DNA from: an uncultured Anaerolineae bacterium
GTDB lineage: Bacteria; Chloroflexota; Anaerolineae; VGOG01
Reading direction: 5' to 3'
Assembly (NCBI GenBank): GCA_964390805.1
Contig: CAYMKL010000014.1
Coordinates: 706-64,705 of the forward strand
DNA: 64,000 nt
This document shows, in pieces, positions 3,177 through 63,990 of this stretch. The notes under the pieces are model-generated. The model did no database searches, was not told where the DNA came from, and saw only the letters and a list, made by a program, of their open reading frames with translations. Position 1 is the first letter of the stretch, and each line of letters opens with the position of its first letter. A program made the translations under genes and the position numbers.

Positions 3177-6100
3177 ATGCGAGAACGACGCAAAATCACC
3201 AATCTAGTACTGACCCTGGCGGCAGTGGGCCTGGGGTTCTTCGCCCAGAGCCGCTTTCGAACGGACGCCATTCGCGATGTCTTGATCCTCTACCTCGTGG
3301 CGGTTGTGCTCCTGGTCTATGCCAACCGCAGTCGAAGCTCAAAGTCCAAAGCTCGAAGCTCAAAGACCGACGCGGAGGACTCCCTGACCCTTCGACAAGC
3401 TCAGGATACCACGACACGGCTGGGGATCTCGACACGCCAGTTGGGCTGGGGCCCTTCGACCATAAGCGGAGCGACGCTCAGGGCAGGCCTGGCGTTGCTG
3501 GCCCTGGCTGGGGTCTGCATGCTTCTCTCGCTGCGTCTCTTCGGGCGTGGTGCTCCCACCACCCGCGCCTGGATCCTCTACCTGGCCAGCATTGCCCTCT
3601 TCGTAGCAGCCTTCTGGGCCATGGAATCCACCCCGAAGCAGTGGAACCTCCGACAACTTCTGTCATTCGACCCTTCGGCTATACTCAGGGCAGGCGGAAT
3701 TAAGACACTGGCTCGACTCTGGCCTCCTAAGATACAGACCGTTATCTTGATAGCGATCCTCATTGTCGCTGCTGTTGTGCGCCTCTACAACCTGGACTCC
3801 CTCCCCTTCGGCGTATGGTATGACGAGGCTGACAATGGCTTATGGGCGATTAGGATCATGGAGGATAGCAGTTATCGTCCCATCTACGTGCAGTCCACGA
3901 ACCTGCCAGCTCATTTCCTTTACCTCGTTGTTCTCTCATTCAAGCTCTTCGGTGTCAATGTATTGGCCATCCGCCTGATCACCGCCGGCTTAGGTGTATT
4001 GACAGTTGTTGCCGTCTATCTTCTGGTCGGGGAGATTCTCGATCATCGCCTGGCGCTTGTGGCGGCCTTCCTCTTGGCGATCTCCCGCTGGGATGTGAAC
4101 TTCAGTCGGTTGGGAATGCACGGAGTGAGCACCCCCCTCTTCACTGCCCTGGCTGCCTATTATCTTATCAAAGCGCTGCGCACCGAGCGGCATCTGGACT
4201 TTGCCTGGGGAGGTGTAGCTTTAGGCCTGGGACTTTGCTTCTATGCTCCTTTCCGTCTCTTCCCCTTTGTCATTGGGCTGTTCCTGGTCCACAAGTCAAT
4301 TGTCGAAAGGGGCTTCGTGAGGCGCTATTATCTGGGCATTCTGGTCTTCGTCTTAGCGGCTCTTCTGGTCTTTGCGCCGGTAGGTCAGTTCGCCTGGCAG
4401 CACCCCAAGACCTTCTTTGATCGCACCAGCGTCACCTCGATATTCAAGGATAAGACTCGCTCCCAGGCCATCGAAGCAGTGCGCCAGAGTGCCAAGCAGC
4501 ATCTCCTGATGTTCAACTATCGCGGAGATCCCAATGGCCGCCACAACCTGCCCGGCAAGCCGATGCTGGACTTTGCCACCTCTGCCCTCTTTGTCCTGGG
4601 TTTGGGCTACAGCCTATCCCGTTGGCGCCAGCCCAAATACTGGCTGCTAGCATTCTGGCTCTTGGTGATGCTGTGCGGGGGGATCCTCTCCCTGGAGTTC
4701 GAGGCTCCCCAATCCCTGCGAGCCATCGGCACCCTGCCCGCGGCCTACGTCCTGGCTTGTGTCCCCCTGTACCTAATCGTCACGGAATGGGATAAGTCAG
4801 TGGGGCGCTGGTCCTGGCTGCCAACTGCTGCCTGCTGCTTGCTGTTAACCCATATCGGCTGGAAGAACATGCACACCTACTTCCAGGTGCAGGCCAAAGA
4901 CTTCGCTGTCTGGAACGCTTTCTCCACCGCCGAGACCCTCACCGCCCGCCGCATGGCCGAAATGGGCCCTGATTACGACTTCCACGTCATTTCCCTCTAT
5001 CATAACCATCCTGTCCTGCGCTTTCTGGCCAGGAACATAACCCAGTACAAGCGCCTGGAGACCAACGCCACGATGCCCCTGCGGGAGAGCGGGGAGCGGG
5101 AGGCGGTGCTCTTCTTTGATCCTGAGAGGCGTCCCCTGTTCCTGGAGGCCAGGCGATACTATCCTGGGGGCACCTTTGAGGAGTTTCAACCTCCCCATGG
5201 CGGCCCCGCTGTGCTATACTCTTGCCAATTGACGCCTGGGCAGATCAAGGACATCCAGGGATTAGTGGGCCGTTATTACCAGGGAAGCGAGGGGGAAGGG
5301 AAGCCCATCCTGGAAAGCAAAGATGCCCAGCTTAGCTTCGACTGGGAAACCGAGCCGCCCTTGCCAGGGCCCTTCAGTGCCCGCTGGGAGGGAATACTCT
5401 ACGTCCCGCGATATGGACCCTATAACCTGGGCTTGGTGGCCCCTGCCGCAGGCCAGGTCTACCTGGATGAGAACGTCCTGCTAGAAGAGCCTGGCGAGGC
5501 CAAGCTTCTCCTGGCCAAAGGCAACCATGCCCTGCGAGTGGAAGCAGAAGACGGGGAAGGACGGGTGGATCTCTACTGGCAGCCACCGGGAGAGCCACCT
5601 AATCCGATTCCTCAACAGTTCCTGTATACCGCCCCGCCGGTGACCAACAACGGCCTCTTGGGCCGCTACTACCGGGGCCTGGATTGGGCGGGAGAGCCAG
5701 CCCTGGAACAGATTGACCCCTCCCTGGCTCTCTATTTTCACGTCACTCTGCTGAGTAGACCCTACACCGTAGAATGGACAGGCAAACTAGAAGCCCCTAC
5801 CGCTGGGAGCTACGGCTTCGGACTGGAGTCCATTGACGATTCCTGGCTCTATGTTGACGGCCAGCCGGTAGTGGAAACCCACGTGCCCAACCAGTACCGT
5901 GAGGGACAGATCAGCCTGACAGCGGGCTGGCACGACATCACCGTGCGTTATGTGGACAGGACCAACCATTCCCACATCAATCTTTATTGGAGACCCCCTG
6001 GCAGCGGGCAGCAGATCATACCCTCAGAACGGCTTCTTCCACCCCAGGGGGCTTACCCTGAACTCGTGGTGCATGCACCGACGGCTCCTCCTGTGCCCGC

Positions 6101-16416: not shown

Positions 16417-17374
16417 GGTTCTGGAAGGGGGAATGTTGACCACCGTCCAGGACCTGGGGCGCTACGGCTGCGAACGCTACGGCGTCCCGGTGGCTGGAGC
16501 GATGGACCCTTTCGCCTTGCAGGTGGCCAACGCCCTGGTGGGAAACAGCCCGGACGAGGCGGCTCTGGAGATAACCATCGTTGGTCCGACGCTTCGCGCT
16601 ACCGCGAGCTGCCTGATCGCTGTCACTGGTGCGGATCTGAATCTACGGGTGAACGGACGCCCGCTTCCTTCGTGGATGGCCGTGTTCGTGCGCAGGGGAT
16701 GGATCATCGAGTTCGGCGAACGGAAAAGGGGTTGCTGGGCTTATCTGGCCGTGGCGGGGGGAGTTGACGTGCCTCCCATCATGGGGTCGAAATCCACTTA
16801 CCTGCGGGGCGGCTTTGGCGGATTCCAGGGGCGCACTCTGAGAGAAGGCGATCTCATACCCATAGGCCAGACCGCTTCCCACCTCCCCAGTTTGGCGGGC
16901 AAGGAGTTCCCACCAGATCGAATCCCTGATTACAGTGACACGCCAGAATTACATGTCGTCCTCGGTCCTCAGGACGATTATTTCACCGAGGAGGGGATAG
17001 CGACCTTCCTTTCAAGCAAGTACCAGGTCAGCCCAACCTCGGATCGGATGGGCTATCGCCTCCAGGGAGCTGAGATAGTCCACCAGGGGCGGGCGGACAT
17101 CATCTCCGATGGGATTGCCCTGGGAGCAGTGCAGGTACCGGCTGATAAACAGCCCATCGTCATGATGGCCGACCGCCAGACGACGGGGGGATACCCTAAG
17201 ATCGCCACCGTCATCAGCGCCGACATACCCCTGCTGGCCCAATGCATGCCGGGTGGCAGCGCCGTCACTTTCAAGGCGATGACCGTCGAGGAGGCCCAAG
17301 GCCGCTATCGGGAGATGGTCAGAGCCCTGTTTCAAAATCCAAAATCCAAAGTTCAAATATCTAATACTCAATAG
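16406..17374 (+). CDS. pxpC: 5-oxoprolinase subunit C (KipA / allophanate hydrolase subunit 2 family)
   Basis: 322 aa; GGMLTTVQDLGRYGCERYGVPVAGAMD... typical PxpC; C-terminal FQNPKSKVQISNTQ is encoded by a heptamer array. Confidence 0.85.
   Translation: MALEVLEGGMLTTVQDLGRYGCERYGVPVAGAMDPFALQVANALVGNSPDEAALEITIVGPTLRATASCLIAVTGADLNLRVNGRPLPSWMAVFVRRGWIIEFGERKRGCWAYLAVAGGVDVPPIMGSKSTYLRGGFGGFQGRTLREGDLIPIGQTASHLPSLAGKEFPPDRIPDYSDTPELHVVLGPQDDYFTEEGIATFLSSKYQVSPTSDRMGYRLQGAEIVHQGRADIISDGIALGAVQVPADKQPIVMMADRQTTGGYPKIATVISADIPLLAQCMPGGSAVTFKAMTVEEAQGRYREMVRALFQNPKSKVQISNTQ
17331..17374. repeat. heptanucleotide tandem array (CAAAATC family) supplying the pxpC C-terminus and stop
   Basis: caaaatccaaaatccaaagttcaaatatctaatactcaatag. 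Confidence 0.6.
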
Positions 17375-18690: not shown

Positions 18691-19847
18691 ACGGAGATGG
18701 GGTTCTGACTGGTGAGTTCTTCATGATGGGCGACATTGCCTGCGCCGAGGGGGCGATCTCCGCCGGTTGCCGTTTCTTTGGCGGCTACCCCATCACTCCG
18801 GCTACGGAAGTTGCCGAACGCATGGCTGCACGGATGCCCCAGGTGGGGGGGACCTATATCCAAATGGAGGATGAGCTGGCCTCCGTGATTGCTGTGCTGG
18901 GAGCTTCGTGGGGCGGGGTCAAAGCCATGACCGCTACTTCTGGCCCCGGTTTCAGTTTGATGATGGAGAACCTGGGCCTGGGGATCATGACCGAGACCCC
19001 TTGTGTGCTGGTTAATGTGCAGCGGGGTGGCCCGTCCACGGGATTGCCCACTCTGGTGGCACAGGGCGACATGATGCAAGCTCGCTGGGGCTCGCACGGC
19101 CCCTATGAGATCATCGCCCTGGCCCCCAGTTCCCCCCAAGAGCTTTTCGATTTGACCATCCGCGCCTTCAACCTCTCTGAGAAATACCGCACCCCGGTGC
19201 TGGTCATGACCGACGCTGAAGTGGGGCACATGACGGAGAAAGTAGTCATTCCCCCGCCAGAGGAGATCGAGACCTTCTCGCGCCGCAAGCCCACTGTTCC
19301 TCCCCATGAATATCTACCCTATAAGGCCGACGACGATCTCGTGCCCCCTATGGCCAACGCTGGCGAAGGCTACCGCTTTCACATAACGGGACTCACCCAC
19401 GACGATCGTGGCTACCCCGGCATGGACGCCAAAACCCAGGAGATATTGATCAATCGCCTGGTCGAGAAGATCAGAAGGAACAAGGACGATATAATTCAAC
19501 TCGAAGAGGATAGGTTAGAGGATGCTGAAGTAGTGGTCTGCTCCTATGGCATCTCCGCTCGCACGGCCCTCTGGCCGGTGGAGTTGGCCCGGCGGGAAGG
19601 CATAAAGGTGGGCACTTTGCGGCTGATTACGGTCTGGCCCTTTCCTGAGGAACAGATCAGGCAGTTGGCCAGGAAGGTGAAGGCTTTCGTTGTGCCAGAG
19701 CTGAACTATGGCCAGATCGTCCTGGAAGTGGAACGTTGCGCTGCTGGTCAGGCTGAGGCGATCCTGGTCCGCCATGCCGGCGGCGACATCCACAAGCCGG
19801 AGAAGGTACTGGAAGCGATCAGGAGGGCAGCAAACGGTGATCAGTAA
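18687..19847 (+). CDS. korA: 2-oxoacid (2-oxoglutarate/pyruvate):ferredoxin oxidoreductase alpha subunit
   Basis: 386 aa; ACAEGAISAGCRFFGGYPITPATE...TATSGPGFSLMMENLG typical KorA/PorA. Confidence 0.88.
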   Translation: MNGDGVLTGEFFMMGDIACAEGAISAGCRFFGGYPITPATEVAERMAARMPQVGGTYIQMEDELASVIAVLGASWGGVKAMTATSGPGFSLMMENLGLGIMTETPCVLVNVQRGGPSTGLPTLVAQGDMMQARWGSHGPYEIIALAPSSPQELFDLTIRAFNLSEKYRTPVLVMTDAEVGHMTEKVVIPPPEEIETFSRRKPTVPPHEYLPYKADDDLVPPMANAGEGYRFHITGLTHDDRGYPGMDAKTQEILINRLVEKIRRNKDDIIQLEEDRLEDAEVVVCSYGISARTALWPVELARREGIKVGTLRLITVWPFPEEQIRQLARKVKAFVVPELNYGQIVLEVERCAAGQAEAILVRHAGGDIHKPEKVLEAIRRAANGDQ

Positions 19848-19857
19848 TCAGTGTTAG
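19837..19857. repeat. heptamer array (ATCAGTG/AGTAATC) at korA 3' end
   Basis: ggtgatcagtaatcagtgtta. Confidence 0.5.
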
Positions 19858-19870: not shown

Positions 19871-20776
19871 ATGGCGAACAAGAGCAACAAACAGGCAATA
19901 ATCTCGAAACCCGAAACTCGAACCCCAAAACTCGAAACCCCAAATCCGAAACCCGACAGTCATCCTATGGACTATCTGCTGCGAGAGGATCGTCTGCCCC
20001 ACATTTGGTGCTCTGGGTGTGGCATCGGCGTGGCTTTGACCTGTTTTATCAAGGCCCTCCAGAAATCGGAGCTGGATTTGGACAAGGTGGCGGTGGTCTC
20101 AGGTATCGGCTGCACGGGGCGGGTGGCTGGCTACGTCAAGCTCGACTCCTTCCACACTACTCACGGGCGAGCGATCCCCTTCGCCACCGGGCTGAAGCTG
20201 GCCAATCCTGAGCTCAAAGTGGTGGTCTTCAGTGGCGACGGCGACCTGATCGCCATCGGCGGCAATCACCTCATACACGCCGCTCGCCGCAACTTAGATG
20301 TGGCCGTCATTTGCGTCAACAACTTCAATTACGGCATGACCGGTGGGCAGGTGGGACCGACCACGCCTCCAGGGGCCAGGACCAGCACTTCGCCCTACGG
20401 CTGCTTCGAGCACCCTTTCAACCTTCCCTACCTGGCTGCGGCTAGCGGAGCGGTGTACGTGGCCCGCTGGACGGCCCTTCACGTACGACGCCTGGAGAAG
20501 TCTATCCTCAATGCACTGCACAAAAGGGGGTTTAGTTTTGTGGAAGTCATCTCCCCTTGTCCCACTTTGTATGGTCGCTGGAACAAACAGCGCACGGGCC
20601 TGGCCCAGATGCAGTATTACCATGACCGGGGTGTCATAAAGCACGGCATTGATCCCAAAGAAGCTGACATTGATCTGCATGGGGAGATCATCGAAGGAGT
20701 GTTTGTGGACATCGAGAAGCCCACTTTTCTCGACTTCTGCAACGCGGCATTAACCAAAGGCATCAGTGATCAGTGA
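19871..20776 (+). CDS. korB: 2-oxoacid:ferredoxin oxidoreductase beta subunit (TPP-binding)
   Basis: 301 aa; WCSGCGIG...GIGCTGR...FSGDGD TPP motif; AGGAGGTG RBS before 19871; first 32 aa are encoded by a heptamer array. Confidence 0.88.
   Translation: MANKSNKQAIISKPETRTPKLETPNPKPDSHPMDYLLREDRLPHIWCSGCGIGVALTCFIKALQKSELDLDKVAVVSGIGCTGRVAGYVKLDSFHTTHGRAIPFATGLKLANPELKVVVFSGDGDLIAIGGNHLIHAARRNLDVAVICVNNFNYGMTGGQVGPTTPPGARTSTSPYGCFEHPFNLPYLAAASGAVYVARWTALHVRRLEKSILNALHKRGFSFVEVISPCPTLYGRWNKQRTGLAQMQYYHDRGVIKHGIDPKEADIDLHGEIIEGVFVDIEKPTFLDFCNAALTKGISDQ
19906..19957. repeat. heptanucleotide tandem array (CGAAACC family) encoding the N-terminal extension of KorB
   Basis: aaacccgaaactcgaaccccaaaactcgaaaccccaaatccgaaacccgac encodes KPETRTPKLETPNPKPD; reverse-complement family at 42030-42066. 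Confidence 0.6.
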
Positions 20777-20818
20777 TTAGTAAACAATGCCCGCTGATTA
20801 CTGATTACTCGTAACTGG
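20761..20818. repeat. inverted heptamer arrays (ATCAGTG ... TGATTAC) forming a hairpin between korB and korC
   Basis: catcagtgatcagtgattagta...ctgattactgattactcgtaactgg. Confidence 0.6.
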
Positions 20819-20834: not shown

Positions 20835-21392
20835 ATGAGTCGAACAGAGATACGCTTAACTGGCTTTGGGGGGCAGGGCATCATTCTCTCAGGTTACATA
20901 ATAGGCAAAGCGGCGGCCATTCACGACAAGAAACAGGCCACTTTCACCCAGAGCTATGGCCCTGAGTCGCGAGGAGGAGCTTGTAGCGCTCAGTTGGTTA
21001 TCTCTGATGAGCACATTAGCTACCCTCATCTCACCGACCCGTCCATCTTAGTCGTGATGTCGCAGGAGGCCTACAACAAGTATGCTCCAACTCTGGGAGA
21101 AAAGGCTCTGCTCATCGTTGACGAGGACCTGGTGGAGATGGGCGAGGTAGCTGGCGATGTGAAGCTGCTCTCGGTCCCGGCTACGCGCCTGGCCGAGGAG
21201 CTGGGGCGGAAGATCGTGGCCAACATCGTCATGCTGGGCTTCTTCGCCGCTGTGACCGACGTGGTCTCCGTAGAGGCCATGCGGGAGGCAGTTCTTACCT
21301 CAGTCCCCAAAGGAACCGAGGAGTTGAACTCGAAGGCTTTTCAGAAGGGGTACGAGTACGGATCAGTGAACAGTAATCAGTGGACAGTCTGA
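20835..21392 (+). CDS. korC: 2-oxoacid:ferredoxin oxidoreductase gamma subunit
   Basis: 185 aa; IRLTGFGGQGIILSGYIIGKAA...QSYGPESRGG typical KorC/PorC. Confidence 0.88.
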   Translation: MSRTEIRLTGFGGQGIILSGYIIGKAAAIHDKKQATFTQSYGPESRGGACSAQLVISDEHISYPHLTDPSILVVMSQEAYNKYAPTLGEKALLIVDEDLVEMGEVAGDVKLLSVPATRLAEELGRKIVANIVMLGFFAAVTDVVSVEAMREAVLTSVPKGTEELNSKAFQKGYEYGSVNSNQWTV

Positions 21393-21420
21393 TTACTGAT
21401 TACTGGTAACTGGTAACTGT
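21361..21420. repeat. inverted heptamer arrays (ATCAGTG/TGATTAC/TGGTAAC) hairpin between korC and downstream gene
   Basis: gatcagtgaacagtaatcagtggacagtctgattactgattactggtaactggtaactg. Confidence 0.6.
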
Positions 21421-21433: not shown

Positions 21434-24400
21434 ATGACCAATCCGGTATTGATCTTGGGCGGGAGCATTGGTGGCCTGCAGGCTGCTCTTGATCTAGCCA
21501 ACTCAGGGCTAGAAGTATGCCTGGTAGAGAGATCGCCCTTTCTGTGTCCTGAGCCTGTCGAAGGGCTTGAGGGTGATGTTGCAACGCCCTCGCACCTTCT
21601 GGCAAGCAAGTTCCTGGAGGCAGTTAAACACCCAAACATCCAGGTGTTCACCAATGCTGAGGTGACGCCCCCCCTTCATCCCCCCCAAAGCTGGGGGGGA
21701 AAAGCGGGAGGGCGGGGCGATTTCCAGATCGAGCTGCAGCAGCACCCCCGCTACGTGGACATGGCCAAGTGCACGGCTTGCGGAGAGTGCGTCCCCGTCT
21801 GTCCCGTGACGATACAGCGCCCCAGCGTCGTAGCGCCCCAGCGTCCAAGCGAGCAGCGCGTAGACGCCAAGACGCTTGGACGCTTCGACGCTGATCGACC
21901 CATCTACAAGCCCGATAACGCTGTGCCGAGCATTTTCGCCATCGAAAAGCGCGAGCCAGCGCCCTGCAAAGTAGCCTGCCCAGCCGGCATCCACGTCCAG
22001 GGCTACGTGGCCCTCATCGCCCAGGGCAAATCCGCCGAAGCCCTGGCCCTGATCCGCGAAGCCATCCCCTTCCCAGGCATCTGCGGCCGCGTCTGCCACC
22101 ACCCCTGCGAGGATGCCTGTCGGCGGGCCGAGCACGACCAGCCAATTGCCATCCAATACCTCAAGCGCTTTGTAGCAGATTGGGAAAAGTCCAACCTCCA
22201 ACCCCCAACCTCCAACCTCCAATGTCCAATATCCAATATCCAATATCCAACCAAAGTTGCCATCGTCGGCAGCGGCCCCGCCGGCCTCACTGCCGCCTAC
22301 TTTTTGGCCCGCGATGGCTATCCTGTCACCGTCTTCGAAGCCCTGCCTGTAGCTGGTGGCATGATGGCGGTGGGTATCCCCGCGTATCGCTTGCCCAGAG
22401 ATGTCCTCCAAAGCGAGATCGAGGCCATCAAGGATTTGGGGGTGGAGATCCGCACCAACACCGTCGTCGGCCCGAACGGTGATTTGTCTTTGGATGACCT
22501 CAGAAGGGACTACGATGCCGTGTTCGTGGCGGTGGGCGCTCATGGCAGCCGTAAGTTGAACGTTGAAGGTGAAGATTTAGCCGGCGTGCTTCACGGGGTA
22601 GATTTCCTGCGGGAGGTGAACCTGGACCCTTCGACAGGCTCAGGGCGCGGCCGGGAGGTCACGGTCGGCCAGAAGGTGCTGGTGATCGGTGGAGGCAACG
22701 TAGCCATTGATTCGGCCACGGTAGCCAGGCGATTGGGAGCACAGCAAGTCACCATACTCTACCGTCGTTCCCGCGAGGAGATGCCCGCCAATTCATGGGA
22801 GATCGAGGAGGCTGAAGAAGAGGACGTCGCCTTTCAATTTCTGACGACGCCGACCAGGGTGTTGGGCGAGAATGGACGGGTGACCGGGTTGGAATGTCTG
22901 CACATGGAGCTGGGCGAGCCCGACGAGAGCGGGCGAAGACGGCCCATGCCCCTCCCCGGTTCGGAGTTCGCGGTTGAGGCGGATACGGTTATTGTGGCCA
23001 TTGGCCAGGTGTTGGATATTGGATATTGGATATTGGAGGCCTGCCCTGAGCCTGGCCTAAGGGTTGGAAATTGGATCGTCGCGGATCCTGTGACTCTGCA
23101 GACGAATCTGGAGGGCGTTTTCGCTGGCGGCGATGCGGTGACGGGGCCGGCTACGGTCATCGAGGCCATCGCCGCGGGGAAGCGGGCGGCCGAGTCCATC
23201 GCGCGATACCTTAGGGGCGAAGACCTGGCCACCGGACGCAGGTTGGGGCGGCCTGACATCTCCGGCATCGAGTACTACACCCCACCCGTCGTCGAGCCAG
23301 AAGCCAGGGTGCCAATGCCCAAGCTCTCCTTAGCTGAAAGAGTGGATTTTGCCGAGACCAACCTGGGCTTCAGCGAGAGGGAGGCCATGGCCGAGGCGGA
23401 GCGCTGCCTCTCCTGCGGCGTCTGCTCTGAGTGCCTGGAGTGCGTCAAGGTCTGCGAGCCGGGAGCCATTGACCACAACGCTCAATGGGAGCGCCTGAGC
23501 CTGAACGTGGCGGCGGTGATTCTAGCGGATGGCAGGCAACAGCAGGGTGTGTATTCGATTAAGCCTGGGGACGCGTTAGAAGCCTCCGCTGCCGCTGCCA
23601 AAGTCATGGCCGACCTGGCCGCGTATCGAACATTCCCTCCAGTTCCCTCTTTCCCTTCTCTTTCCGCCCCTTCCAGAATTGGCGTGTTCGTCTGCTGCTG
23701 TGGCAACGAGATCAGCAGCGTCGTGGATGTTGATGTGGTGGTAGGCGAGATTTGCCGTTTGCCCGGCGTGGCTCTCGCTGAGAATGTTCCCTTTGCCTGC
23801 CATGAGGAGGGGACGGCGGCCATCCAGCAGGCCATCGTCGAGGAGGACCTGGATCGGGTGGTGCTGGCTGCCTGCTCTTGCTGCTCCCTCGACCAGGTCT
23901 GCGACAGTTGTACCTACCAGCGGGTGCGCTGCAAACTTCAAACGCTAAACTCTAAACTCCAAACTGGCTTCGAGTTTGTCAACATCCGCGAGCAGTGTGC
24001 CTGGGTGCACGCCGACGAGCCGCATAGAGCCACGGCCAAAGCCAGGAGCATCATCGCCTCTGCCGTAGCCAAGGCGCGTCAGGATGAAGCCAGGGCCAGG
24101 AGCACTGTTTCCCTCGACCAAAGCGTGTTGGTGATCGGGAACGGGATAGCTGGCGCGGTTTGCGCCGACGCACTACAGGCCCAAGGTTTCCAGGTTTTCC
24201 GAAGCGAGCCCCCGCCTCTGACTGTGAGAGGCTCCGTAGGCAACTTCACGGCGATCATGCCTGAATCAGGCGGGGAACGGGAGCTGAGGATCGGTGCCAT
24301 CGTCCTGGCCTCTGAGGGCGAGTTGGATATTGGAAATCCGGGAGTCTTCGCCTACGATCCGGAAGATGGGTGTGATCCGCAGGTCTGGGGTTTGGCCGTT

Positions 24401-24697
24401 GCCTCCAGGGTCGCGGCTTTGCTGAACAGGGGTTGGGCCCTGGTCGAGCCCGTCGTGGCCCAGGTTGATCCTGCCCGATGCCGGGCATGCGGTACCTGCC
24501 AGGAGATCTGTGGGTTCCACGCCGTCAGGGTGCGCGAGAATGGACGGGGTGTCCTGGTAGCTCAGGTGGATGAAGCCGCCTGCCTGGGTTGTGGCACCTG
24601 CGCCGCTCACTGTCCGTCGGGGGCGATCACGGCAGGCTATTCGACGGATAGGCAAATCGAAGCGATGCTAGTTGAGTTGGTAGGTTGTAGGGGGTGA
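21434..24697 (+). CDS. large FAD/FeS oxidoreductase: HdrA-like domains fused to a GltD-like NAD(P)H-binding domain (HdrL/Flox-like)
   Basis: 1087 aa; N-terminal GGSIGGLQAALDLA FAD fold; CTACGECVPVCPV 4Fe-4S; GltD-like block (CKVACPAGIHVQGYV, KVAIVGSGPAGLTAAYFLARDG); second half (IGVFVCCCGNEI...NIREQCAWVH) alignable with hdrA 28017-30638; C-terminal CRACGTCQEIC and CLGCGTCAAHC. Confidence 0.8.
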   Translation: MTNPVLILGGSIGGLQAALDLANSGLEVCLVERSPFLCPEPVEGLEGDVATPSHLLASKFLEAVKHPNIQVFTNAEVTPPLHPPQSWGGKAGGRGDFQIELQQHPRYVDMAKCTACGECVPVCPVTIQRPSVVAPQRPSEQRVDAKTLGRFDADRPIYKPDNAVPSIFAIEKREPAPCKVACPAGIHVQGYVALIAQGKSAEALALIREAIPFPGICGRVCHHPCEDACRRAEHDQPIAIQYLKRFVADWEKSNLQPPTSNLQCPISNIQYPTKVAIVGSGPAGLTAAYFLARDGYPVTVFEALPVAGGMMAVGIPAYRLPRDVLQSEIEAIKDLGVEIRTNTVVGPNGDLSLDDLRRDYDAVFVAVGAHGSRKLNVEGEDLAGVLHGVDFLREVNLDPSTGSGRGREVTVGQKVLVIGGGNVAIDSATVARRLGAQQVTILYRRSREEMPANSWEIEEAEEEDVAFQFLTTPTRVLGENGRVTGLECLHMELGEPDESGRRRPMPLPGSEFAVEADTVIVAIGQVLDIGYWILEACPEPGLRVGNWIVADPVTLQTNLEGVFAGGDAVTGPATVIEAIAAGKRAAESIARYLRGEDLATGRRLGRPDISGIEYYTPPVVEPEARVPMPKLSLAERVDFAETNLGFSEREAMAEAERCLSCGVCSECLECVKVCEPGAIDHNAQWERLSLNVAAVILADGRQQQGVYSIKPGDALEASAAAAKVMADLAAYRTFPPVPSFPSLSAPSRIGVFVCCCGNEISSVVDVDVVVGEICRLPGVALAENVPFACHEEGTAAIQQAIVEEDLDRVVLAACSCCSLDQVCDSCTYQRVRCKLQTLNSKLQTGFEFVNIREQCAWVHADEPHRATAKARSIIASAVAKARQDEARARSTVSLDQSVLVIGNGIAGAVCADALQAQGFQVFRSEPPPLTVRGSVGNFTAIMPESGGERELRIGAIVLASEGELDIGNPGVFAYDPEDGCDPQVWGLAVASRVAALLNRGWALVEPVVAQVDPARCRACGTCQEICGFHAVRVRENGRGVLVAQVDEAACLGCGTCAAHCPSGAITAGYSTDRQIEAMLVELVGCRG
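21549..21566. repeat. PEPVEG/LRQAQD element copy
   Basis: cctgagcctgtcgaaggg encodes PEPVEG. Confidence 0.55.
21667..21718. repeat. C7/G7 palindromic element inserted in-frame
   Basis: cccccccttcatcccccccaaagctgggggggaaaagcgggagggcgggg encodes PPLHPPQSWGGKAGGRG; near-identical copy at 30003-30050. Confidence 0.75.
22189..22250. repeat. heptamer tandem array (CCAACCT/CCAATAT) in-frame
   Basis: ccaacctccaacccccaacctccaacctccaatgtccaatatccaatatccaatatccaa encodes SNLQPPTSNLQCPISNIQYP. Confidence 0.65.
22627..22645. repeat. PEPVEG/LRQAQD element copy
   Basis: cccttcgacaggctcaggg encodes DPSTGSG. Confidence 0.5.
23012..23066. repeat. heptamer array TTGGATA x3 (inverse of 22189-22250) plus partial PEPVEG element
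   Basis: gttggatattggatattggatattggagg ... cctgccctgagcctggcctaagggttgg encodes VLDIGYWILEACPEPGLRVGNW. Confidence 0.6.
23932..23966. repeat. heptamer tandem array (CAAACTC/TAAACTC) in-frame
   Basis: gcaaacttcaaacgctaaactctaaactccaaactgg encodes KLQTLNSKLQT. Confidence 0.55.
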
Positions 24698-24866
24698 GTA
24701 CCATCTCTACCTGGCGGAGGAGCTGGGGTATTTGCAAAACGAAGATGCGAAAAGGCTATCGGCGATCAGCGATGAAGCAGCCAAAACCCTGCAGGGCCTC
24801 ATCAAATGGTTGGAAAAGCAGCTCCGAGCCGGCAAGCTCACCAAAGACGACCTGAAACGGTGAGCC
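24684..24866 (+). pseudogene. C-terminal remnant of a four-helix-bundle protein (23S rRNA IVS protein family), no start codon
   Basis: Frame +1 relative to upstream gene, open only from 24684: YHLYLAEELGYLQNEDAKRLSAISDEAAKTLQGLIKWLEKQL; matches C-terminal consensus (LgYi...ee...l.....ei.kmL.gLIk.L) of that family; bracketed by GGTTGTAGG and CCTACAACC repeats. Confidence 0.3.
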
Positions 24867-24900
24867 TACAACCTACCATCTACAACCTACTACCTGCTCA
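24866..24900. repeat. heptamer array CTACAAC/CTACCAT upstream of mvhD
   Basis: cctacaacctaccatctacaacctactacctgctc. Confidence 0.55.
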
Positions 24901-24911: not shown

Positions 24912-25301
24912 ATGGCTGAAACGGAACCACGTGTCGTTGTGTTCACTTGTAACTGGAATGCCTACAGCGCGCTGGAGACGGCCGGCTCTAGGCGATTGGC
25001 TTATCCGGCCAACGTGCGCCCCATCCGGGTGATGTGCCTGGGACGGCTGCATCCGGGCCTCATTCTCAAGGCGTTTGAGTTGGGAGCCGATGGTGTCTTG
25101 CTCCTGGGCTGCCCGCCTGGAGAATGTCACTACGAGTTCGGCAACGAGCGGGTGGAAGAGCTTTTCCAGGAAACCAGCGCCATTGCCCATCTCCTGGGCA
25201 TCAAGGACGAGCGGTTGAAGCTGGATTCGGTGGGAGCAGGGGAAGGTGAGGCCTTCGTTCAGAAAGTGGCGGAGTTCTATCGGCAGGTTGTAGGGTTGTA
25301 G
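24912..25301 (+). CDS. mvhD: MvhD-like hydrogenase/heterodisulfide reductase iron-sulfur subunit D
   Basis: 129 aa; VVFTCNWNAYSALETAG...MCLGRLHPGL...GCPPGECHYEFGN Cys pattern of MvhD. Confidence 0.8.
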   Translation: MAETEPRVVVFTCNWNAYSALETAGSRRLAYPANVRPIRVMCLGRLHPGLILKAFELGADGVLLLGCPPGECHYEFGNERVEELFQETSAIAHLLGIKDERLKLDSVGAGEGEAFVQKVAEFYRQVVGL

Positions 25302-25347
25302 CAAGTAGTTGTAGCTATTTACTACAACCTACCATCTACCTACTGGA
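25285..25347. repeat. inverted heptamer arrays GTTGTAG ... CTACAAC (hairpin) at mvhD 3' end
   Basis: caggttgtagggttgtagcaagtagttgtagctatttactacaacctaccatctacctactgg. Confidence 0.55.
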
Positions 25348-26531: not shown

Positions 26532-26608
26532 TTTGGAAGTTGGACGTTGGAAGTTGGATGCTGGATGTTGGCCTTCAAATCTCTGACTTCCAACCTCTAA
26601 TCTCCAAC
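26532..26608. repeat. inverted heptamer arrays (TTGGAAG x5 ... TTCCAAC/CTCCAAC) intergenic hairpin
   Basis: ttggaagttggacgttggaagttggatgctggatgttgg...cttccaacctctaatctccaaca. Confidence 0.65.
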
Positions 26609-27961: not shown

Positions 27962-28003
27962 AACGTGAAACGTGAAGCGTGAGGACCACGTTTTACGTTT
28001 TCG
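27954..28003. repeat. inverted heptamer arrays (GAAACGT x4 ... ACGTTTT x2) hairpin between sugar dehydrogenase and hdrA
   Basis: gaaacgtgaaacgtgaaacgtgaagcgtgaggaccacgttttacgttttcg; supplies ET* terminus of upstream gene. Confidence 0.65.
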
Positions 28004-41862: not shown

Positions 41863-44800
41863 TTAGCTCTTCAGCACCAACGGCAACCAGAAGCGAGACA
41901 CAACCATGTGGACTACTACTGTCGGTCCAGTGAGCTCTGCGTTGCCCGCCCTATCCCCACTGCGGGCCCGGATGAAGTACTCCACTTGATCCTCAGGCAG
42001 GGTGCCAGCGAAGGCCCACAGTGTGGCTGTTTCGGGTTTCGGGTTCTGGGTTTCGGGTTGAGGTGTTGGGGACTGCGACCTCTCCGCCAGCAACTTCTCG
42101 GCTCCATCCGCCAGCACCGCGTTGCGCCAGGTGAGGCCGCCGTCCAGGCTGACTTCGACGCGGTCCACACCTACCCCGTCCTCGCTCCAGCCCCAGACGA
42201 GGACCTGTGTCACATCAGGCTCTAGCCAGGTGCCGTCGGCCGGGTGGGCGATGGTGGTCGTTGGGGCCACCGCGTCCACGATGACTTCCACGGGCACTGA
42301 AGGCTCGCCCACGTTGCCCGCCGCGTCTATCGCGCGGACGCGCAGGGTGTAGGTGATGCCTTCCTCGCCAGCCGGCAGCCACCAGCGCCAGGTCCACGTG
42401 TACGTACCATCCGCTTGTCGCACCGGCTGGTCCACCACACCCCACGGGCCGCCGTCGAGTTGGATCTCCACGGCGTTCAGCGCACCGTTGGCCGGGAAGG
42501 AGTCAAAGGCCCGGCCAGCGATCTCTAGTGCCCGACCGCCTACCAGCGTCGGACTGACAGCCGGCTGCTCAATGGCCGCTTGCGGCCCAACCGCATCTAC
42601 CAGCATCTCAGTGCCTGCGACTGGCCCGACGTTGCCCAGCACGTCCCAGGCCCGCGCCCAGACCCACACGGTCTCGACGCCTTCGGGTACGTCCACCTTC
42701 CCGGTCCAGAAGAGCGTGCCATGGGCCGTCTGCCAATCCGCTGATGCGGGGGCCTCGCTTACGGTGACGGCTACCTCTACTCGCGCCGCGCTGGCCCCCT
42801 GGCCTGGCGGCACGGTGCCCAGCACCGTCACCCAGCCGGGCCGAACGGCGTCCTCGCCGCTGGGATCGGTCAGTTCCACGCGCAGGCCCTCGGCGTCCAC
42901 CGCGTGGCTCAGGGTGACCAAGTTGTCGCTGGGGCTGGCGTCGGGCCACGTGGTGTGCAGCGTGGCCGTCGTGGTCACAGCGCCACCTGCCGTCAGGGCG
43001 TCCACCACCTGGGCTTCCACAGTGAGCGACCGCCATTCGCCGCTGGGCAGGTCGCCGAACTGCCAGGCCCAGATAGCGCTGCCGGGGCCACAGCTCTCGC
43101 ACGCGCCGTCGCCCTCCGCGCTGAAGTAGGCCAGGCCGGGCGAGGCCTCCAGGGTCAGTCGCGCGTCCTCTGCCGCCTGCAGGCCGGAGCTCCCCAGTCG
43201 GACCTCGTAGGTGATGACGCTCCCCTGGCCCAGATGCACGGCCGGCGGCTGCAGGCTCGACACCACGAGCCAGGTATGGTCGGCCACGGGCTGACCAGCG
43301 CTGGGCATCACCTGAGGTCCCAACTCGGGCCAGGTGTAGGCATCGGTCCACGGACCGGCCAGCGGGTTGGTGGCCGGGAAGACGGCCCAGGCAGCCCCAC
43401 CATCCTCCGGCACGGCGAAGGCCATGAATCCCAGGCCCACCGGCTGCCCCAGCGCTGCCAGTGGGATGCGCACCTCCGTCCCACCCAGGCTGCTGTGGGC
43501 GTATTCGACGCTCGCGTCCTCCACCGCCACCCAGGTGCTTCCATTCCAGGCCAGGAAGCTCGCCACGTCGTGCTCGTCCACGGTGAAGGCGTATTCGGCG
43601 TGGAAGGGGAGAGTATGACCCGCCACATCGGTGGCGCCGCCAGCGCCGGTGTCGAACAGGAACCAGGCCTCCCCATCCAGGCTCCAGATGCCGCCCTGCC
43701 AGCCCAGGAAGAGGTCATCGGCGTCCCACTGGGTGTAGAGCTGGGCTGTCTGGCCGGCGGTGCGCACGTCTTCGTCCAGCAGGTGGAACTCCGGCAGCCA
43801 CTCGCCGTGAGGGATGTCCACCACCCCGTCCACAACCACTATGCTCGTGCCGCCACTCAAGCCCAGGCCGGCGTCGGAGACGTGCCAGGGGCCATAGTGG
43901 CGGATGAGCCAGTTGCTGGCATTGTCGGCTGCCCTCAGGTGGAAGTACCAGTCGCCGGGGGAATCGAAACTGCCGCTGAAGCTGGTGCCCGCTGCTGGTG
44001 CTGTGGGCACGGTGTTGGTGATCTGATCCAGGGCCACGAACGTGCCCGCGATGCCGCTGCCGTCAGTGGCCGCGTTCCAGGTGGCCTGCAGCGACGCGCC
44101 CACGCCGGTATGCGTGCCCTCCTCCAGGTTGAACGTCACCGGTGTCAGTCCGCCGGGCAGGACGTTGTCCACCGTGAGGGCGATCCGCTGCTGTGTCGTC
44201 AGCCCGCCCCGGTCGGTGGCCTCCACCGCCAGGTGCCAGGTCTGCCCATCCAGCCTGGGCACGTCCCAGGTGGCAGACCAAGTGCCGCCGTCTTGAGAAG
44301 CTTCGCGCCAGGAGGCGGTGTTGTCTGGACTGAAGCGGACTGCCGTTACCCCTGAGGTGGCGTCGGTGGCCGTGCCGGTGACGGTGATGCGACCCGTGGT
44401 AGTGATCACGCTGCCGCCAGTCGGGCCGGTGAAGGAGGCTACAGGCGATGTCGCGTCTACGATGATGCGTACCGGATCGGTCACGTACTCTGCACCGTCG
44501 GTATCCCTTACACTGGCGGTGGCGTTGTGAGCGCCATCCTCCCATCTGCTGAGAACGACGAAGTCGCGCGCGTAGGCCCAGTGGAAACGGTGAGGGTTGC
44601 CATCGGGAGCGATACACGATCCCGTGGTCGCAGTGCGCACGCATATCTGGGCGATGCCTTGCGAGGCAACGGCCGTACCCTCAATGGGGGGGAGGCTTTC
44701 TGTGGAGATATCGCCGTCGGCGTAGTTCTCAACGATGTTGCCCAGGTCTGGTACAGAGACAGCGATCGTGCGCTCCTGGCCGTAATCCACGTTGCCCAGC

Positions 44801-61919: not shown

Positions 61920-61960
61920 ACTCGTTGCCTCGTTCCTCATTGCCTCGTCCCTCATCCCCT
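61920..61960. repeat. heptamer tandem array (CTCGTTG/CCTCATT) intergenic
   Basis: ctcgttgcctcgttcctcattgcctcgtccctcatccccta. Confidence 0.55.
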
Positions 61961-63990
61961 ACGGCCGCCGTTCATAGATGACCACGTTCCCCTGCTGGAA
62001 CGCCACATCCATGAAGCGCTCGAACTTGGCCAGGGCGGCCGGGCTATACTTGCCTCGCTCCAGGGAGCCCACGTAGACATAGGTTATATCATACTTTTCC
62101 AATAGCGTCAAGACGTGCTGGGTATCCAGGCTGTTGTAGATAGCATTTATGTCAGGCTCGCGGCGGCCCGGCTCCTCATAGCTTCCTCGCCACTGTAACT
62201 CGTGGCCGCCCCAACCCAGCAGCGTGGGCAGCCCCGTGCGGCTGGATACGCGCGCGTACTCGGTGAAGGAGCCGCCCGTGACCTCCAAAATGACCGACGT
62301 GTCCAGCACGTGTTGGTTGAGCCACTCGACGGCGGCGTACTCGTCGGGGGAATATTGGCGCACGTAGGCCAGGCCGTCCAAGGTTGGTTGGTGGGCAAAG
62401 CCGCCGGCCTTGTCGAATCCCGCAGCCAGCGGGTAGACCATGCCCATGGCGAAAAGCACCGCGAAGCCCGCCAGGAACAATAGCCGCCCCAATCCCCCCG
62501 CCCTTTCGATGATGTAGTACACGCCATAGGCACTGGCCAGGGCCAGCAGCACCCAGGCCTGATAGTAGAACTTGAACACGGTGTTCATGCGAGTGCCGAA
62601 GGTATCCCGCAAGTACACGAACTCTACGCCGAGGGTAAGCACCAGGCCAGTGAAAATTATGAGCATCACGAACAGCGTGCTCGGCTCGGCAATTCTCCCC
62701 GCGTCCAAAGCTGCTCTAAGGGGATTGTGTGCAACCGCGGTTGCCTCCCGCTTTTGGCCTGGATCCGGCGCTTGTCTTGAACTCTGTCGAAGGGATCCAG
62801 GCTGAGCAGAATTCGATCCGCTGATTCGCAATCCTCCCCACAGCAAAGCAACAATCCAGGCGATCAGCAGGGCCAGGAAGAGCCAGGTGCAGGGGTTGCC
62901 AAGCCGGACGGTGATGAACATCTTGAACAACGAGGGCAAATCGGCCCCGCCGATCTGCTGGCGGATCCTCTCGTTCTCCAGAATGCTTCGCAGAAAGGCC
63001 TGCCCCGGGGCGGTGAGCATGAGCAGAGTGATTGAGCCCAGGACGGCCAGAGGTGGCAGAAGAATGGTCCAAAACAGAGCGTTCAAGCCGCTACTCACCA
63101 GCCTCTTGCTCTCAACCTCAGCCCTCAACCGTCTCGTCACCAGCGCTCCGAAAGCGATGATCACAAACAAGAACGGCCCGAAGAAGATCAGGTACTGGTG
63201 CAACCTGGTGGGATTGAAAACGTGGGGTAGGATACCCCCGGCCTGTGACTGGAAGCCAACGTAGAAGGGCAGATAGAGAACACCCCCCAGAAGTCCCAAG
63301 CCAACGACCGTGTAAGCCACGTCTCTCACCAAAGCCCAGTTTACTTTGCCATAATGTCCGTAGCGGTGCAACCCGTAGGCCATCGCCACCACGAACAGGT
63401 AGATGGGAAAGTCCCAGGTGTTGAGGAAGCCGAGGCTGCCCAGGCAGAGGGCGTAGATGATTGGATGTTGGAGGGTGGAGGTTGGAAGTTGGAAGTTGGA
63501 GATTAGAGATTGGATATTGGAGATTGGAAGTTTGTTTTTTGATTTTTGATTTTTGATTTTGGATTTTGGGACCTCTTGCCTAAGTACATTCAGCGCCAGA
63601 GCTAGTGCCAGCAGCACAAAAGGCAATGCCAGAACGTGGGGGTGCATGTCGCCTAGCATGAAGCTGAAGAAGGGGAACTCGTCAATGACCTCCATGGTGT
63701 TGCCCAGCAGGTCCTTGTCGTGGATGACGCGGGAGGCGCGCCACCACCACCATCCGCCGCCAAGATCAAACCACCGCCCGGTGACCCGCCCATTGCTCAC
63801 CAGCTCTTTTATGTCAAGCCAATTCCAGAAACCGGCTGAGCCGAGCCCCTTGGCGTGGAGCACCTCCAAGATCCCCTCCAGATTGCCGAGGACGGCGACG
63901 AATACAGGGCCGAGCAGGGGAACGAGGTAACGAATCAACGAGTCACCGAGTCTCCCCTGCTCCCCTGCCCCCTTGCTCCCCTGCTCCTGT
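61959..63990 (-). CDS. DUF2298 / TIGR03662 (Chlor_Arch_YYY)-like large polytopic membrane protein; 5' end probably beyond window edge
   Basis: Frame remains open to position 63990 (TTG at 63938 is the only candidate start inside window); many TM helices; the TIGR03662/TIGR03663 pair is a known co-occurring set in Chloroflexi/archaea. Confidence 0.65.
62770..62793. repeat. PEPVEG/LRQAQD element copy in-frame
   Basis: cttgtcttgaactctgtcgaaggg. Confidence 0.5.
63461..63570. repeat. long compound heptamer array (TTGGAAG/TTGGAGA/TTTTTGA) in-frame in DUF2298-like gene
   Basis: ttggatgttggagggtggaggttggaagttggaagttggagattagagattggatattggagattggaagtttgttttttgatttttgatttttgattttggattttggg encodes (minus) KSKIKNQKSKNKLPISNIQSLISNFQLPTSTLQHP. 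Confidence 0.7.
63949..63982. repeat. octamer tandem array (CCCCTGCT) at window edge
   Basis: ctcccctgctcccctgcccccttgctcccctgctcc. Confidence 0.5.

Follow-up and report, generated by a model that had tools for sequence, protein, structure and literature searches.

A 64,000-nt stretch of DNA from an uncultured Anaerolineae bacterium (Chloroflexota; contig CAYMKL010000014.1, positions 706 to 64,705; hereafter the window) is densely populated with tandem arrays of heptanucleotides, many of which occur as inverted pairs that fold into stem-loops at gene junctions. One of these stems encloses the decayed remnant of a four-helix-bundle (4HB) gene of the Avd/S23p-like kind, and intact 4HB genes carry arrays of the same kind on their flanks in several phyla, while the occupancy of orthologous junctions changes from one related species to the next. 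We consider it probable that the arrays represent a lineage-specific heptamer family colonising permissive sites, made up of stem elements mostly without an open reading frame (ORF), which are akin to the short tandemly repeated repetitive (STRR) sequences of cyanobacteria and to the intervening sequences (IVSs) of 23S rRNA genes.

An earlier note on this DNA had described the arrays as pervasive and had suggested a tandem-repeat scan at period 7, and both the abundance and its restriction to this period were borne out. Tandem Repeats Finder (TRF) assigned period 7 to 23 of its 56 rows in the window. Nine exact runs of at least 2.5 copies were counted at period 7 compared with 0.1 expected from dinucleotide-preserving shuffles, an approximately 90-fold excess, whereas periods 5, 6 and 8–15 gave 0–2 exact runs each, which is the chance level; the excess was also found in the relatives. 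Head-to-tail 7-nt units in at least 2–3 copies, as in STRR-type repeats, were seen both by TRF and by direct reading of the sequence, and together with the specific enrichment of period 7 they support the likeness to cyanobacterial heptamers that the note had drawn. By manual assignment the arrays are mainly intergenic, with ∼10 sites in a few kb of spacer against ∼9 in ∼60 kb of coding sequence, an approximately 25-fold difference in density.

Logan contigs from two different Sequence Read Archive (SRA) runs are 100% identical to window positions 10835–23047, 20236–23047 and 23028–26151, so that the arrays, whose absence from an independent assembly had been named as the mark of an artefact, are reproduced base for base. 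In both runs the TTGGATA array near 23028–23047 is the end point of a contig. Since the contigs are identical across arrays and also end at one, we conclude that arrays break short-read assemblies and are not made by them. The only other contigs found with the same proteins were 100% identical across arrays.

Junctions that carry hairpins are designated J0, J2, J3, J5, J6 and J7, and their coordinates are collected in Table 1. Each of the five hairpins named previously (J2, J3, J5, J6 and J7) was read directly and folds as stated, with energies of −21.9 to −31.9 kcal/mol, z-scores of −3.2 to −5.4 relative to shuffles, and stems of 14–26 bp made by inverted array pairs. Typically, the stop codon of the upstream gene lies within the 5′ arm or 1–3 nt before it, and the ribosome-binding site of the downstream gene starts 2–15 nt past the 3′ arm. 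At J0 the upstream stop codon is likewise located within the 5′ arm, and the fold of 3070–3135 reaches −28.5 kcal/mol (z −7.1). Three copies of an ATCAGTG, GAAACGT or GTTGTAG unit are enough to place a stop codon in all reading frames, which accounts both for the writing of gene ends by these units and for their exclusion from coding DNA. Reading of the gene ends that had been attributed to arrays confirmed those of KorA (..GDQ*), KorB (..GISDQ*), KorC (..SNQWTV*), PxpC (..FQNPKSKVQISNTQ*; quoted as ..KSKVQISNTQ*) and the sugar dehydrogenase (..GMHET*), which is a UDP-glucose dehydrogenase (UGDH). At the other end of genes, the N-terminal 32 residues of KorB do carry a CGAAACC array, a strong Shine–Dalgarno sequence preceding ATG 19871, and ORFs 26540 and 27972 do have false N-terminal extensions, as had been proposed, their true starts being ATG 26621 and ATG 28017.

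The element at 24681–24895, which the earlier note had overlooked, lies at the junction of the HdrA-like gene and mvhD. The 214-nt spacer there encodes YHLYLAEELGYLQNEDAKRLSAISDEAAKTLQGLIKWLEKQLRAGKLTKDDLKR*, which matches the C-terminal part of TIGR02436 ('four helix bundle protein'; positions 70–108 of 109) and of PF05635 ('23S rRNA-intervening sequence protein'), both with scores below the curated cut-offs. The remnant shares 98% identity with the last 55 residues encoded by an intact gene located at the same junction in L085 and L086 (L-numbers denote comparison loci from relatives or homologue searches), where the 132-aa 4HB gene is flanked by (TTGGTAGGTTGTAG)x2 and (CTACAACCTACCAT)x2. 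A further intact 4HB gene at the HdrA/MvhD junction, in L186, encodes a protein with 65% identity and is flanked by GGTTGTAG and CTACAAC units as in the window. In the predicted fold of 24675–24900, the outer stem pairs GGTAGGTTGTAG.. with ..CTACAACCTACC. Since both arms are kept and the remnant lies in the loop, the junction appears to hold a stem whose enclosed ORF is being lost through deletion.

Arrays flanking 4HB genes are found well beyond this lineage. We examined ∼26 4HB genes from Chloroflexota, Bipolaricaulota, Cyanobacteriota, Gemmatimonadota and Bacteroidota and from an Azospirillum 23S rRNA IVS, nearly all of which have tandem arrays of 7-nt, or in some cases 8-nt, units on their flanks, mostly in inverted orientation; all other 4HB homologues in the relatives' loci first examined have heptamer arrays on their flanks. 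In 42 flanks of 22 4HB genes, period 7 reached a score of at least 9 in 24 (57%) and period 8 in two; period 7 was the top lag in most flanks, and periods 5, 6, 9 and 10 were never on top at this score. By comparison, the same period-7 score was reached in only 6 of 1218 control gene-end flanks (0.5%; 1.35 Mb). The upstream and downstream flanks pair into stems of 17–37 bp (z >7) in 15 of 20 4HB genes. On the Picosynechococcus sequence (49 kb) the sole 7/8-nt array lies 18 nt from the 4HB gene, the top three octamer arrays on that of Gemmatirosa (45 kb) are all at most 150 nt from the 4HB gene, and in Azospirillum (35 kb) the array detector finds none away from it. The Azospirillum lipoferum copy lies within the large-subunit (LSU) rRNA gene (Rfam RF02541) and is therefore a classical 23S IVS; its arms, CAGAGGA CGGATGA CAGAGGA CGGAGGA.. 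and ..CCGTCCT CTGTCTT CTGTCAT CCGTCTT, show by eye a degenerate 7/14-nt periodicity that falls below the detector threshold. A tblastn search of 72,556 plasmids matched 29 records, mostly from Nostocales and other cyanobacteria.

The closest solved homologue of the 4HB protein is XCC0516 of Xanthomonas campestris (PDB 2GSC, E = 4.6e-24). We predicted beforehand that XCC0516 abuts a GGGAATC array, and this was borne out by the supplementary table of Rehm et al., in which repeat #15, with four GGGAATC units, lies 6 nt from bccP (XCC0517) and overlaps the start of XCC0516 (PMC4692102). A link with 4HB genes is not mentioned by these authors (PMC4692102). In the literature searched, CC-licensed PMC papers and bioRxiv, the heptamer–S23p pattern has been noticed for Coxiella alone and not generalised; among the papers listed for PF05635 and its synonyms, no title or abstract start was about heptamer repeats, and a literature search for STRRs or heptamer repeats in Chloroflexi gave nothing relevant.

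Free-standing 4HB genes also occur within CRISPR-Cas operons on cyanobacterial plasmids (L175, L176, L178), in the orders cas6 - 4HB - cas4 and cas10 - 4HB - cmr3. Other copies lie within pheS-pheT and tldD-pmbA and downstream of bccP in Xanthomonas, nearly always co-oriented with the host operon. The Gemmatirosa plasmid (L184, 73% G+C) also carries inverted and single 9-nt arrays (CACGGAGGA / TCCTCCGTG) at 403–471, 3323–3349 and 9235–9261, a family distinct from the octamers at its 4HB gene.

The units had been described as locus-specific, which proved incorrect: a small set of unit families is used repeatedly at different sites of the window and turns up again elsewhere in the genomes of related species. 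Across the window and twelve related loci, the dominant families, shared by unrelated sites, are AAACGTG/AAACGTC/AAAACGT, TTGGAAG/TTGGAGG/TTGGATA/TTGGAGA, GATCAGT/AATCAGT and AAATCCG/AAACCCG, and those recurring across loci and species also include ATCAGTG, GGTTGTAG, CGAAACC and TTGGANN. Most of 80 KorB-homologue and 80 UGDH-homologue loci are without an exact period-7 run. Such runs occur chiefly in the window's close relatives, a single Anaerolineae lineage; of the other ∼130 loci most have none, and the exceptions are in Bipolaricaulota, in one GC-rich metagenome-assembled genome (MAG) and as scattered single runs. Dense GC-rich heptamer/octamer arrays (AAGGGGC, CAGGGTG and their complements) were observed in L045, a MAG labelled Methanobacteriota with 66% G+C; searches of its 20.8 kb found no 4HB gene.

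Among species with 86–93% amino-acid identity, orthologous junctions are empty, filled or differently filled. The TTGGAAG stem of J6 is present in the window and in L003 and L088; the site is empty in L087 and holds other elements in L009 (a 300-nt composite) and L090, and L084–L086 have no stem but an N-terminal in-gene array instead. At J7, most relatives have a stem of 12–40 bp, which is built from another unit family in L009, and the site is empty in L092 and L156; J2 and J3 are both empty in L006. Such presence and absence among species is easier to reconcile with dispensable, fast-evolving elements than with fixed regulators. Two further kinds of element were observed in these relatives. 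An approximately 100-nt sequence (CACTGGCGTTTTT..GTAGTGACGACTTCAGTCGT..AAAGC.ACT.AAGT.GC.ACTAC), resembling a miniature inverted-repeat transposable element, occurs at different junctions in L003 (∼10905–11000) and L009 (∼16660–16760), in the latter inside a heptamer hairpin. Within 20 kb of L009, a dispersed hairpin whose loop (..GGGAATCAGGCATCTCCTCATTTCCTGATTCCC..) is conserved and whose arms have mixed 7- and 8-nt periods is found at no fewer than four junctions (SucD/Fer4, KorB/KorC, KorC/HdrA and HdrBC/UGDH); GGGAATC also is the Xanthomonas unit.

The ORF-less stems probably belong to the same class as the 4HB-bearing ones, because unit families are shared (GGTTGTAG at J5, as in the arms of the 24681–24895 element; ATCAGTG at J2 and J3 and on the flanks of the L087 4HB gene), because sites are shared (the J3 site of L189 and L192 is occupied by a 4HB gene), and because a path of ORF decay can be seen. 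The ORF-less hairpins would be derived from the 4HB-bearing form or be its targets. Orthologous 4HB genes whose proteins are as little as 65% identical still have one unit family in common on their flanks, which argues for long co-inheritance but is compatible with either direction of causality.

Coding arrays use stop-free units (TCCAACC, TTGGATA, AAACTCT, CGAAACC and TCGGAAT) and, as stated earlier, remain in frame, the long ORFs staying open across them. Of the three peptides quoted for them, LDIGYWILE is exact and the other two were slightly off, reading ..SNLQCPISNIQYPT.. and ..DFGIRNSEFGI... TRF shows that these arrays have a 21-nt higher-order period, as expected if only in-frame slippage survives. 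The HdrA/GltD-like protein carries arrays at residues 253–273, 527–535 and 836–844, each of which is a variable linker in every homologue; close relatives carry other units and copy numbers there, and at the place of the 23940 array the L009 orthologue has 118 nt of AAACGTG/C encoding KRETSNV x6. The family of the KorB N-terminal array is also found at the same place in L003 and L009. Whole inverted pairs are accommodated in frame within genes at 21815–21893 (octamer arms) and at 14382–14472 of L003; the ∼22-aa insertion made by the former is missing from the L003 and L085 orthologues. Long-range pairing between the arrays at 22190–22252 and 23012–23037 was considered and rejected: their complementarity holds for the window, L003 and L009 but not for L004, L005 or L006, and is most simply due to TTGGANN being the commonest family.

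Two mini-elements were observed in coding regions. A mini-palindrome, CCCCC(C)TTCATCCCCCCCA-N2-4-TGGGGGGGAAA.., is present at 21668–21711, 30004–30043, 41180–41215 and 26122–26170, the last copy with a longer loop, and encodes ..PPLHPPQSWGGKAGG.., a peptide that in L009 lies within a heptamer array of the orthologous gene; its core, CCCCCCA-N0-8-TGGGGGG, was seen three times compared with 0.01 expected. The other, GCCTGCCCTGAGC..(G)GTCGAAGGG, occurs at 3476–3488(-), 3683–3695(-), 23039–23051 and 26135–26147. One of its copies splits the TTGGATA array at 23012–23077, another sits in the loop of the C7/G7 palindrome beside a TTGGAAG array, and a related element, CTGAGCCTGGTCGAAG, splits an AAATCCG array in L089/L147.

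Table 1. Array features of the window (J, hairpin-bearing junction) and 4HB genes with flanking arrays at comparison loci
Feature	Position	Strand	Units	Context	Source
J0 hairpin	3076..3131	+	CCAATAG/CTAATAT.. vs ..TGGCTAT/TGGATAT	between two PMT/NHL genes	
Direct array	3149..3176	+	GCTATCT x4	directly 5′ of probable start ATG 3177	TRF
Coding array	3335..3365	+	AAGCTCA x4.4	loop of PMT_2 protein (..SRSSKSKARSSKT..)	TRF
Gene-end array	17333..17374	+	degenerate CAAAATC, ∼6 units	encodes PxpC last 13 residues and stop	TRF
Gene-end units	19838..19857	+	two ATCAGTG-family units	supply KorA C-terminus GDQ*	sequence read
Coding array	19905..19956	+	CGAAACC x7.4	encodes KorB N-terminal extension	TRF
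J2 hairpin	20761..20811	+	ATCAGTG x3, loop, CTGATTA x2	KorB/KorC; KorB stop in 5′ arm	
J3 hairpin	21361..21420	+	ATCAGTG family	KorC/HdrA-like	
Inverted octamer arrays	21815..21893	+	CAGCGCCC.. / GACGCTTC..	∼22-aa insertion, HdrA/GltD-like protein	
Coding array	22190..22252	+	TCCAACC/TCCAATA x9	63 nt, 21 codons, period 21; Fer4_20/Pyr_redox_2 linker	
Coding array	23012..23077	+	TTGGATA	variable loop; split by mini-element GCCTGCCCTGAGC..AAGGG at ∼23038-23063	
Coding array	23940..23965	+	AAACTCT x3.7	variable loop	TRF
Decayed IVS-like element	24681..24895	+	inverted heptamers	stem around 4HB-gene remnant	
Element 5′ arm	24681-24697	+	GGTAGGTTGTAG	contains HdrA-like stop codon	
Truncated 4HB (S23p/Avd-like) remnant	24699-24863	+		sense orientation	
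Element 3′ arm	24865-24895	+	CCTACAA x4.4		
J5 hairpin	25285..25347	+	GGTTGTAG / CTACAAC	MvhD/HdrBC-like	
Array, then nested palindromes	26102..26170	+	TTGGAAG x2.9	C7..G7 around GCCTGCCCTGAGC..GTCGAAGGG	
J6 hairpin	26532..26608	+	TTGGAAG family	HdrBC-like/UGDH	
J7 hairpin	27952..28003	+	GAAACGT x4 / ACGTTTT x2	UGDH/next gene; stop in 5′ arm	
Coding array	40512..40540	-	TCGGAAT (coding strand)	3645-aa Ig-domain protein, ..DFGIRNSEFGI..	TRF
Array	42029..42059	-	GTTTCGG x4.4	inside 4261-aa ORF coordinates, near 3′ end	TRF
Single-arm array	61921..61955	-	7/8-nt	spacer after DUF2298 gene	TRF
Composite coding array, 109 nt	63461..63569	-	CAAAAAT then TCCAAnn (coding strand)	∼36-aa insertion, DUF2298 membrane protein	
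Inverted octamer arrays	63912..63987	-		window end	TRF
4HB gene, L164			AGCAGGC / CTGCCTG	between enoyl-CoA hydratase gene and dehydrogenase gene	metagenome homologue
4HB gene, L168			AGAGGCC.. / CTCTTGC..	pheS - 4HB - pheT	metagenome homologue
4HB gene, L169			GGTCTAA x5, downstream only	tldD - 4HB - pmbA	metagenome homologue
4HB gene, L188			GAGCAGG / CTGCCTG		metagenome homologue
4HB genes, L189 and L192			GCAGCAA / TTGCTGC	KorC/HdrA junction, site of J3	metagenome homologues
4HB gene, Calothrix			GGGTGTA / CTACACC	plasmid	
4HB gene, Nostoc edaphicum			GTAGGGA / TCCCTAC	plasmid	
4HB gene, Anabaena 90			GGTGACA / CTGTCAC	plasmid, cas6 - 4HB - cas4	
4HB gene, Picosynechococcus			period 7-8 arrays	plasmid, cas10 - 4HB - cmr3	
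4HB gene, N. punctiforme			GTCAGGA x5	plasmid	
4HB gene, Pseudanabaena (L178)			14 and 10 direct copies	plasmid	
4HB gene, Leptolyngbya			weak period-8 signal, below threshold	plasmid	
4HB gene, Gemmatirosa			octamers GGGCAGGA / CTCCTGCC	plasmid	
4HB gene, Riemerella			AAACCTT..	plasmid	

The element reading can be put together as follows. Arrays of the STRR or Xanthomonas GGGAATC kind would fill nearly every permissive site, that is, intercistronic spacers, gene ends and variable loops, and slippage in 7-nt steps would expand, contract and homogenise them. Within genes only frame-keeping changes would survive, giving the 21-nt period, and the stop-bearing units would be excluded from coding sequence and overwrite the ends of upstream genes. 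Inverted pairs would be stem-loops built like the stems that enclose Avd/S23p-like 4HB genes, of which the 23S IVS is the known example; the 24681–24895 element would be an ORF-bearing form, now decayed, and the other junction hairpins its ORF-less versions. By analogy with the IVS, the stems may be transcribed as part of the kor-hdr operon mRNA and cut by RNase III, which would segment the transcript. The elements would be selfish or near-neutral, carried along by the genome without being needed for regulation.

Several alternatives were weighed against this reading. Heptamer-biased replication slippage, along the lines of Mrazek's polymerase-footprint idea, would make the arrays plain simple-sequence repeats and the inverted pairs and 4HB neighbours incidental. 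It would account for the turnover of copy number and units between orthologous sites and for the many arrays that are single, unpaired and in genes, a possible single proto-unit, GAAACGG, is present at the otherwise empty J7 site of L156, and the over-representation of heptamers in many bacteria has been attributed to slippage (PMC4692102). However, slippage yields direct repeats and not complementary arrays a few bases apart, such as those behind junction stems with z −3 to −7; the arrays flanking 4HB genes stand in sequence otherwise without strong same-period arrays, and the contrast with control flanks is 57% against 0.5%; and one unit family stays with orthologous 4HB genes down to 65% protein identity. 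We regard this alternative as unlikely. Lower still is the probability that the hairpins are selected intercistronic regulators resembling the repetitive extragenic palindromic (REP) sequences of E. coli, protecting upstream mRNA segments from 3′ exonucleases or tuning operon expression or translation termination. Their regular placement (stop codon in the 5′ arm, stem, ribosome-binding site) and the J7 stem kept in most relatives even with a different unit family would suit such a role, as would the finding that, for five of the eight junction regions folded in the window, the sense-strand fold is the more stable by 4–9 kcal/mol (J2: sense −22.7, antisense −14.1) and that an ungapped count over four window hairpins gave 10 G-U pairs against one A-C. 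Against it stand the junctions that are empty in close relatives (J6, J7, J2 and J3, as above), the whole stems lying in frame within coding sequence and a strand bias that is not significant clade-wide. Sense-strand G-U bias was accordingly rejected as proof of RNA-level selection: it is clear in the window and absent at the stems of 4HB genes.

That the hairpins are intrinsic terminators or attenuators, a role entertained in the earlier note, is very improbable. They are stable stems at gene ends, but they have no T-tract, none is reported by a terminator scan, and they lie between co-directional genes of one cluster behind a single conserved promoter, a cluster closed at 30672–30706 by a GC-rich stem of unique sequence flanked by A- and T-runs, which is predicted to be a canonical bidirectional terminator. 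The lack of a T-tract and the absence from the scan mark them as intra-operon elements. It is scarcely credible that they are phase-variation loci, in which heptamer copy number would switch genes as in neuO of E. coli K1: a 7-nt unit does shift the frame unless copies change in threes, and arrays do occur 5′-terminally in the KorB gene of the window and in the UGDH gene of relatives, but the genes are those of housekeeping energy metabolism, the arrays are imperfect (73–90% matches), most are intergenic or mid-protein, and contigs of the two independent runs are identical across them. An assembly or sequencing artefact has practically no probability: short-read contigs do break at arrays, but against it stand the base-for-base agreement between the runs, homologous arrays in >10 independently assembled relatives, and long ORFs kept open by in-gene arrays.

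A number of observations weigh against the element reading itself. Of the ∼8 stems in the window, a 4HB gene has left a trace in one and none in the other seven, and no 4HB gene with TTGGAAG or AAACGTG arms was seen among the loci examined. The 4HB genes could have inserted into, or survived in, pre-existing hairpin loops; single in-gene arrays require no stem model; and the element model leaves without explanation why the period is 7. The 4HB sample came from a single query and is biased to the relatives of that query and to cyanobacterial plasmids; within it, the Pseudanabaena flanks (L178) are direct and not inverted, and two or three loci have weak stems. As to RNA, the clade-wide count of G-U versus A-C over 26 distinct oriented hairpins is 45 versus 33 (p = 0.21), with p = 0.06 for the energy difference, and in stems around 4HB genes it is 21 versus 20. 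Given this weak bias outside the window, maintenance at the RNA level is not established.

The best genome matches of the window are uncultured Anaerolineae MAGs (KorB identity 85–91%), and the G+C content of the host is 61%. Its array-dense part, 17–28 kb, is a co-directional energy-metabolism cluster comprising succinyl-CoA-ligase-like, ferredoxin, KorA/KorB/KorC, 1087-aa HdrA/GltD-like flavoprotein, MvhD, HdrB/C-like and UGDH genes. A near-consensus promoter with TG, TTGACA-17-TATACT, at 18253–18281 is kept in relatives. It is followed, within 18253–18417 and upstream of ferredoxin-korABC, by a leader with the GC hairpin GGCGGGGGATGAACTCCGGGGTTCCCCCGCC and a T-rich tail, which is conserved in L003, L004, L005, L006 and L009, matches nothing in Rfam and could function as an attenuator or in a riboswitch-like way. 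Over the whole window, Rfam at the gathering threshold gave zero matches, including rRNA, and no tRNAs were found. Two giant ORFs lie at 30758–41695(-) (3645 aa, with bacterial Ig-like and TSP3 domains) and 41863–54648(-) (4261 aa). After them come a protein of 211 aa that has a ubiquitin-like domain (54651–55286) and a GAF/receiver/Trans_reg_C regulator.

Three phenomena have long been without explanation: heptamer repeats (STRRs, 1990), the intervening sequences of 23S rRNA (1990), and the thousands of free-standing 4HB genes related to Avd, the accessory protein of diversity-generating retroelements (DGRs). We tentatively raise the possibility that Avd/S23p-like 4HB proteins are dedicated partners of 7–8-nt array stems across phyla, which they would bind, process or mobilise, by analogy with REP-associated tyrosine transposases (RAYTs) and their REP sequences. 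STRRs, Xanthomonas GGGAATC repeats, Anaerolineae hairpins and 23S IVSs might then form one class, whose autonomous form would carry a 4HB gene in the loop and be vastly outnumbered by ORF-less copies. Were this so, STRRs, IVSs and free-standing 4HB genes would each become experimentally approachable. For the annotation of Chloroflexota and cyanobacterial MAGs, the arrays matter through broken short-read assemblies, false N-terminal extensions, rewritten C-termini and repeat peptides in enzymes.

The STRRs of heterocystous cyanobacteria, as reportedly described by Mazel et al. in 1990, are head-to-tail heptanucleotide repeats that come in several unit types and are scattered through the non-coding DNA of one lineage. 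The window arrays likewise comprise several 7-nt unit types dispersed in one lineage, and on Calothrix, Nostoc and Anabaena plasmids heptamer arrays flank 4HB genes as they do in Anaerolineae. The units differ (CCCCAGT, TTGGTCA and CAACAGT in STRRs; TTGGANN, ATCAGTG and AAACGTG in the window) and the host belongs to the Chloroflexota, so that the window arrays are not STRRs in the strict sense. To our knowledge, no ORF-carrying element that includes STRRs has been described. In Xanthomonas and Nostoc, GGGAATC and GGGGA(C/T)T heptamers lie for the most part between genes and are strongly over-represented compared with repeats of other periods (Rehm et al. 2015, PMC4692102), and Xanthomonas has 70–75 convergent inverted pairs per genome that are able to form stem-loops (PMC4692102). 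Like the window arrays, these heptamers lie between the same genes in related species and vary in length and sequence (PMC4692102). Xanthomonas, however, has one G-rich unit family, read as G-quadruplex-forming (PMC4692102), whereas at least six mostly non-G-rich families are found here in another phylum. A G-quadruplex reading after Rehm et al. was set aside since most units here are without G-runs. The window also differs from Xanthomonas in its many in-frame coding insertions.

Upstream of the S23p ORF, the 23S IVS of Coxiella carries, in the stem region, 2–3 tandem GACAGAT heptamers, the copy number of which varies between strains (Warrier et al. 2016, PMC4990558); the first of these repeats is where RNase III cuts, the terminal stem measures 28 bp, and the ORF is decaying by deletion (PMC4990558). 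The 24681–24895 element resembles such IVSs with an S23p ORF (Coxiella, Leptospira) in its terminal-inverted-repeat stem, which surrounds the sense-oriented, truncated remnant of a putative PF05635 ORF, and the window elements share with them ORF decay by deletion and the existence of ORF-less versions. In contrast to IVSs, the window elements are mostly without an ORF and lie between protein-coding genes, in mRNA spacers and in coding loops, not in 23S helices 25/45; RNase III excision has been demonstrated for the Coxiella IVS and is predicted by analogy for the window stems.

REP sequences and REPINs are short, dispersed extragenic palindromes, and the RAYT hypothesis is based on a RAYT gene flanked by inverted repeat copies. 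The window hairpins are similar in that many occur per genome, at intercistronic sites, and in that an associated gene is flanked by inverted repeat copies. They differ in having arms that are tandem arrays of several families and not one conserved palindrome, and the associated gene encodes an Avd-like four-helix bundle without known catalytic activity in place of a Y1 transposase; a Pfam scan of 28 of the window's ORFs turned up no RAYT (Y1, IS200/IS605-like) gene. The small dispersed repeats (SDRs) of Nostoc, reportedly described by Elhai et al. in 2008, differ in sequence and host from the elements described here. They are nevertheless matched in kind by the mini-palindromes nested in heptamer arrays, namely GCCTGCCCTGAGC..AAGGG at 23038–23063, its relative in L089/L147 and the C7..G7 element of L009.

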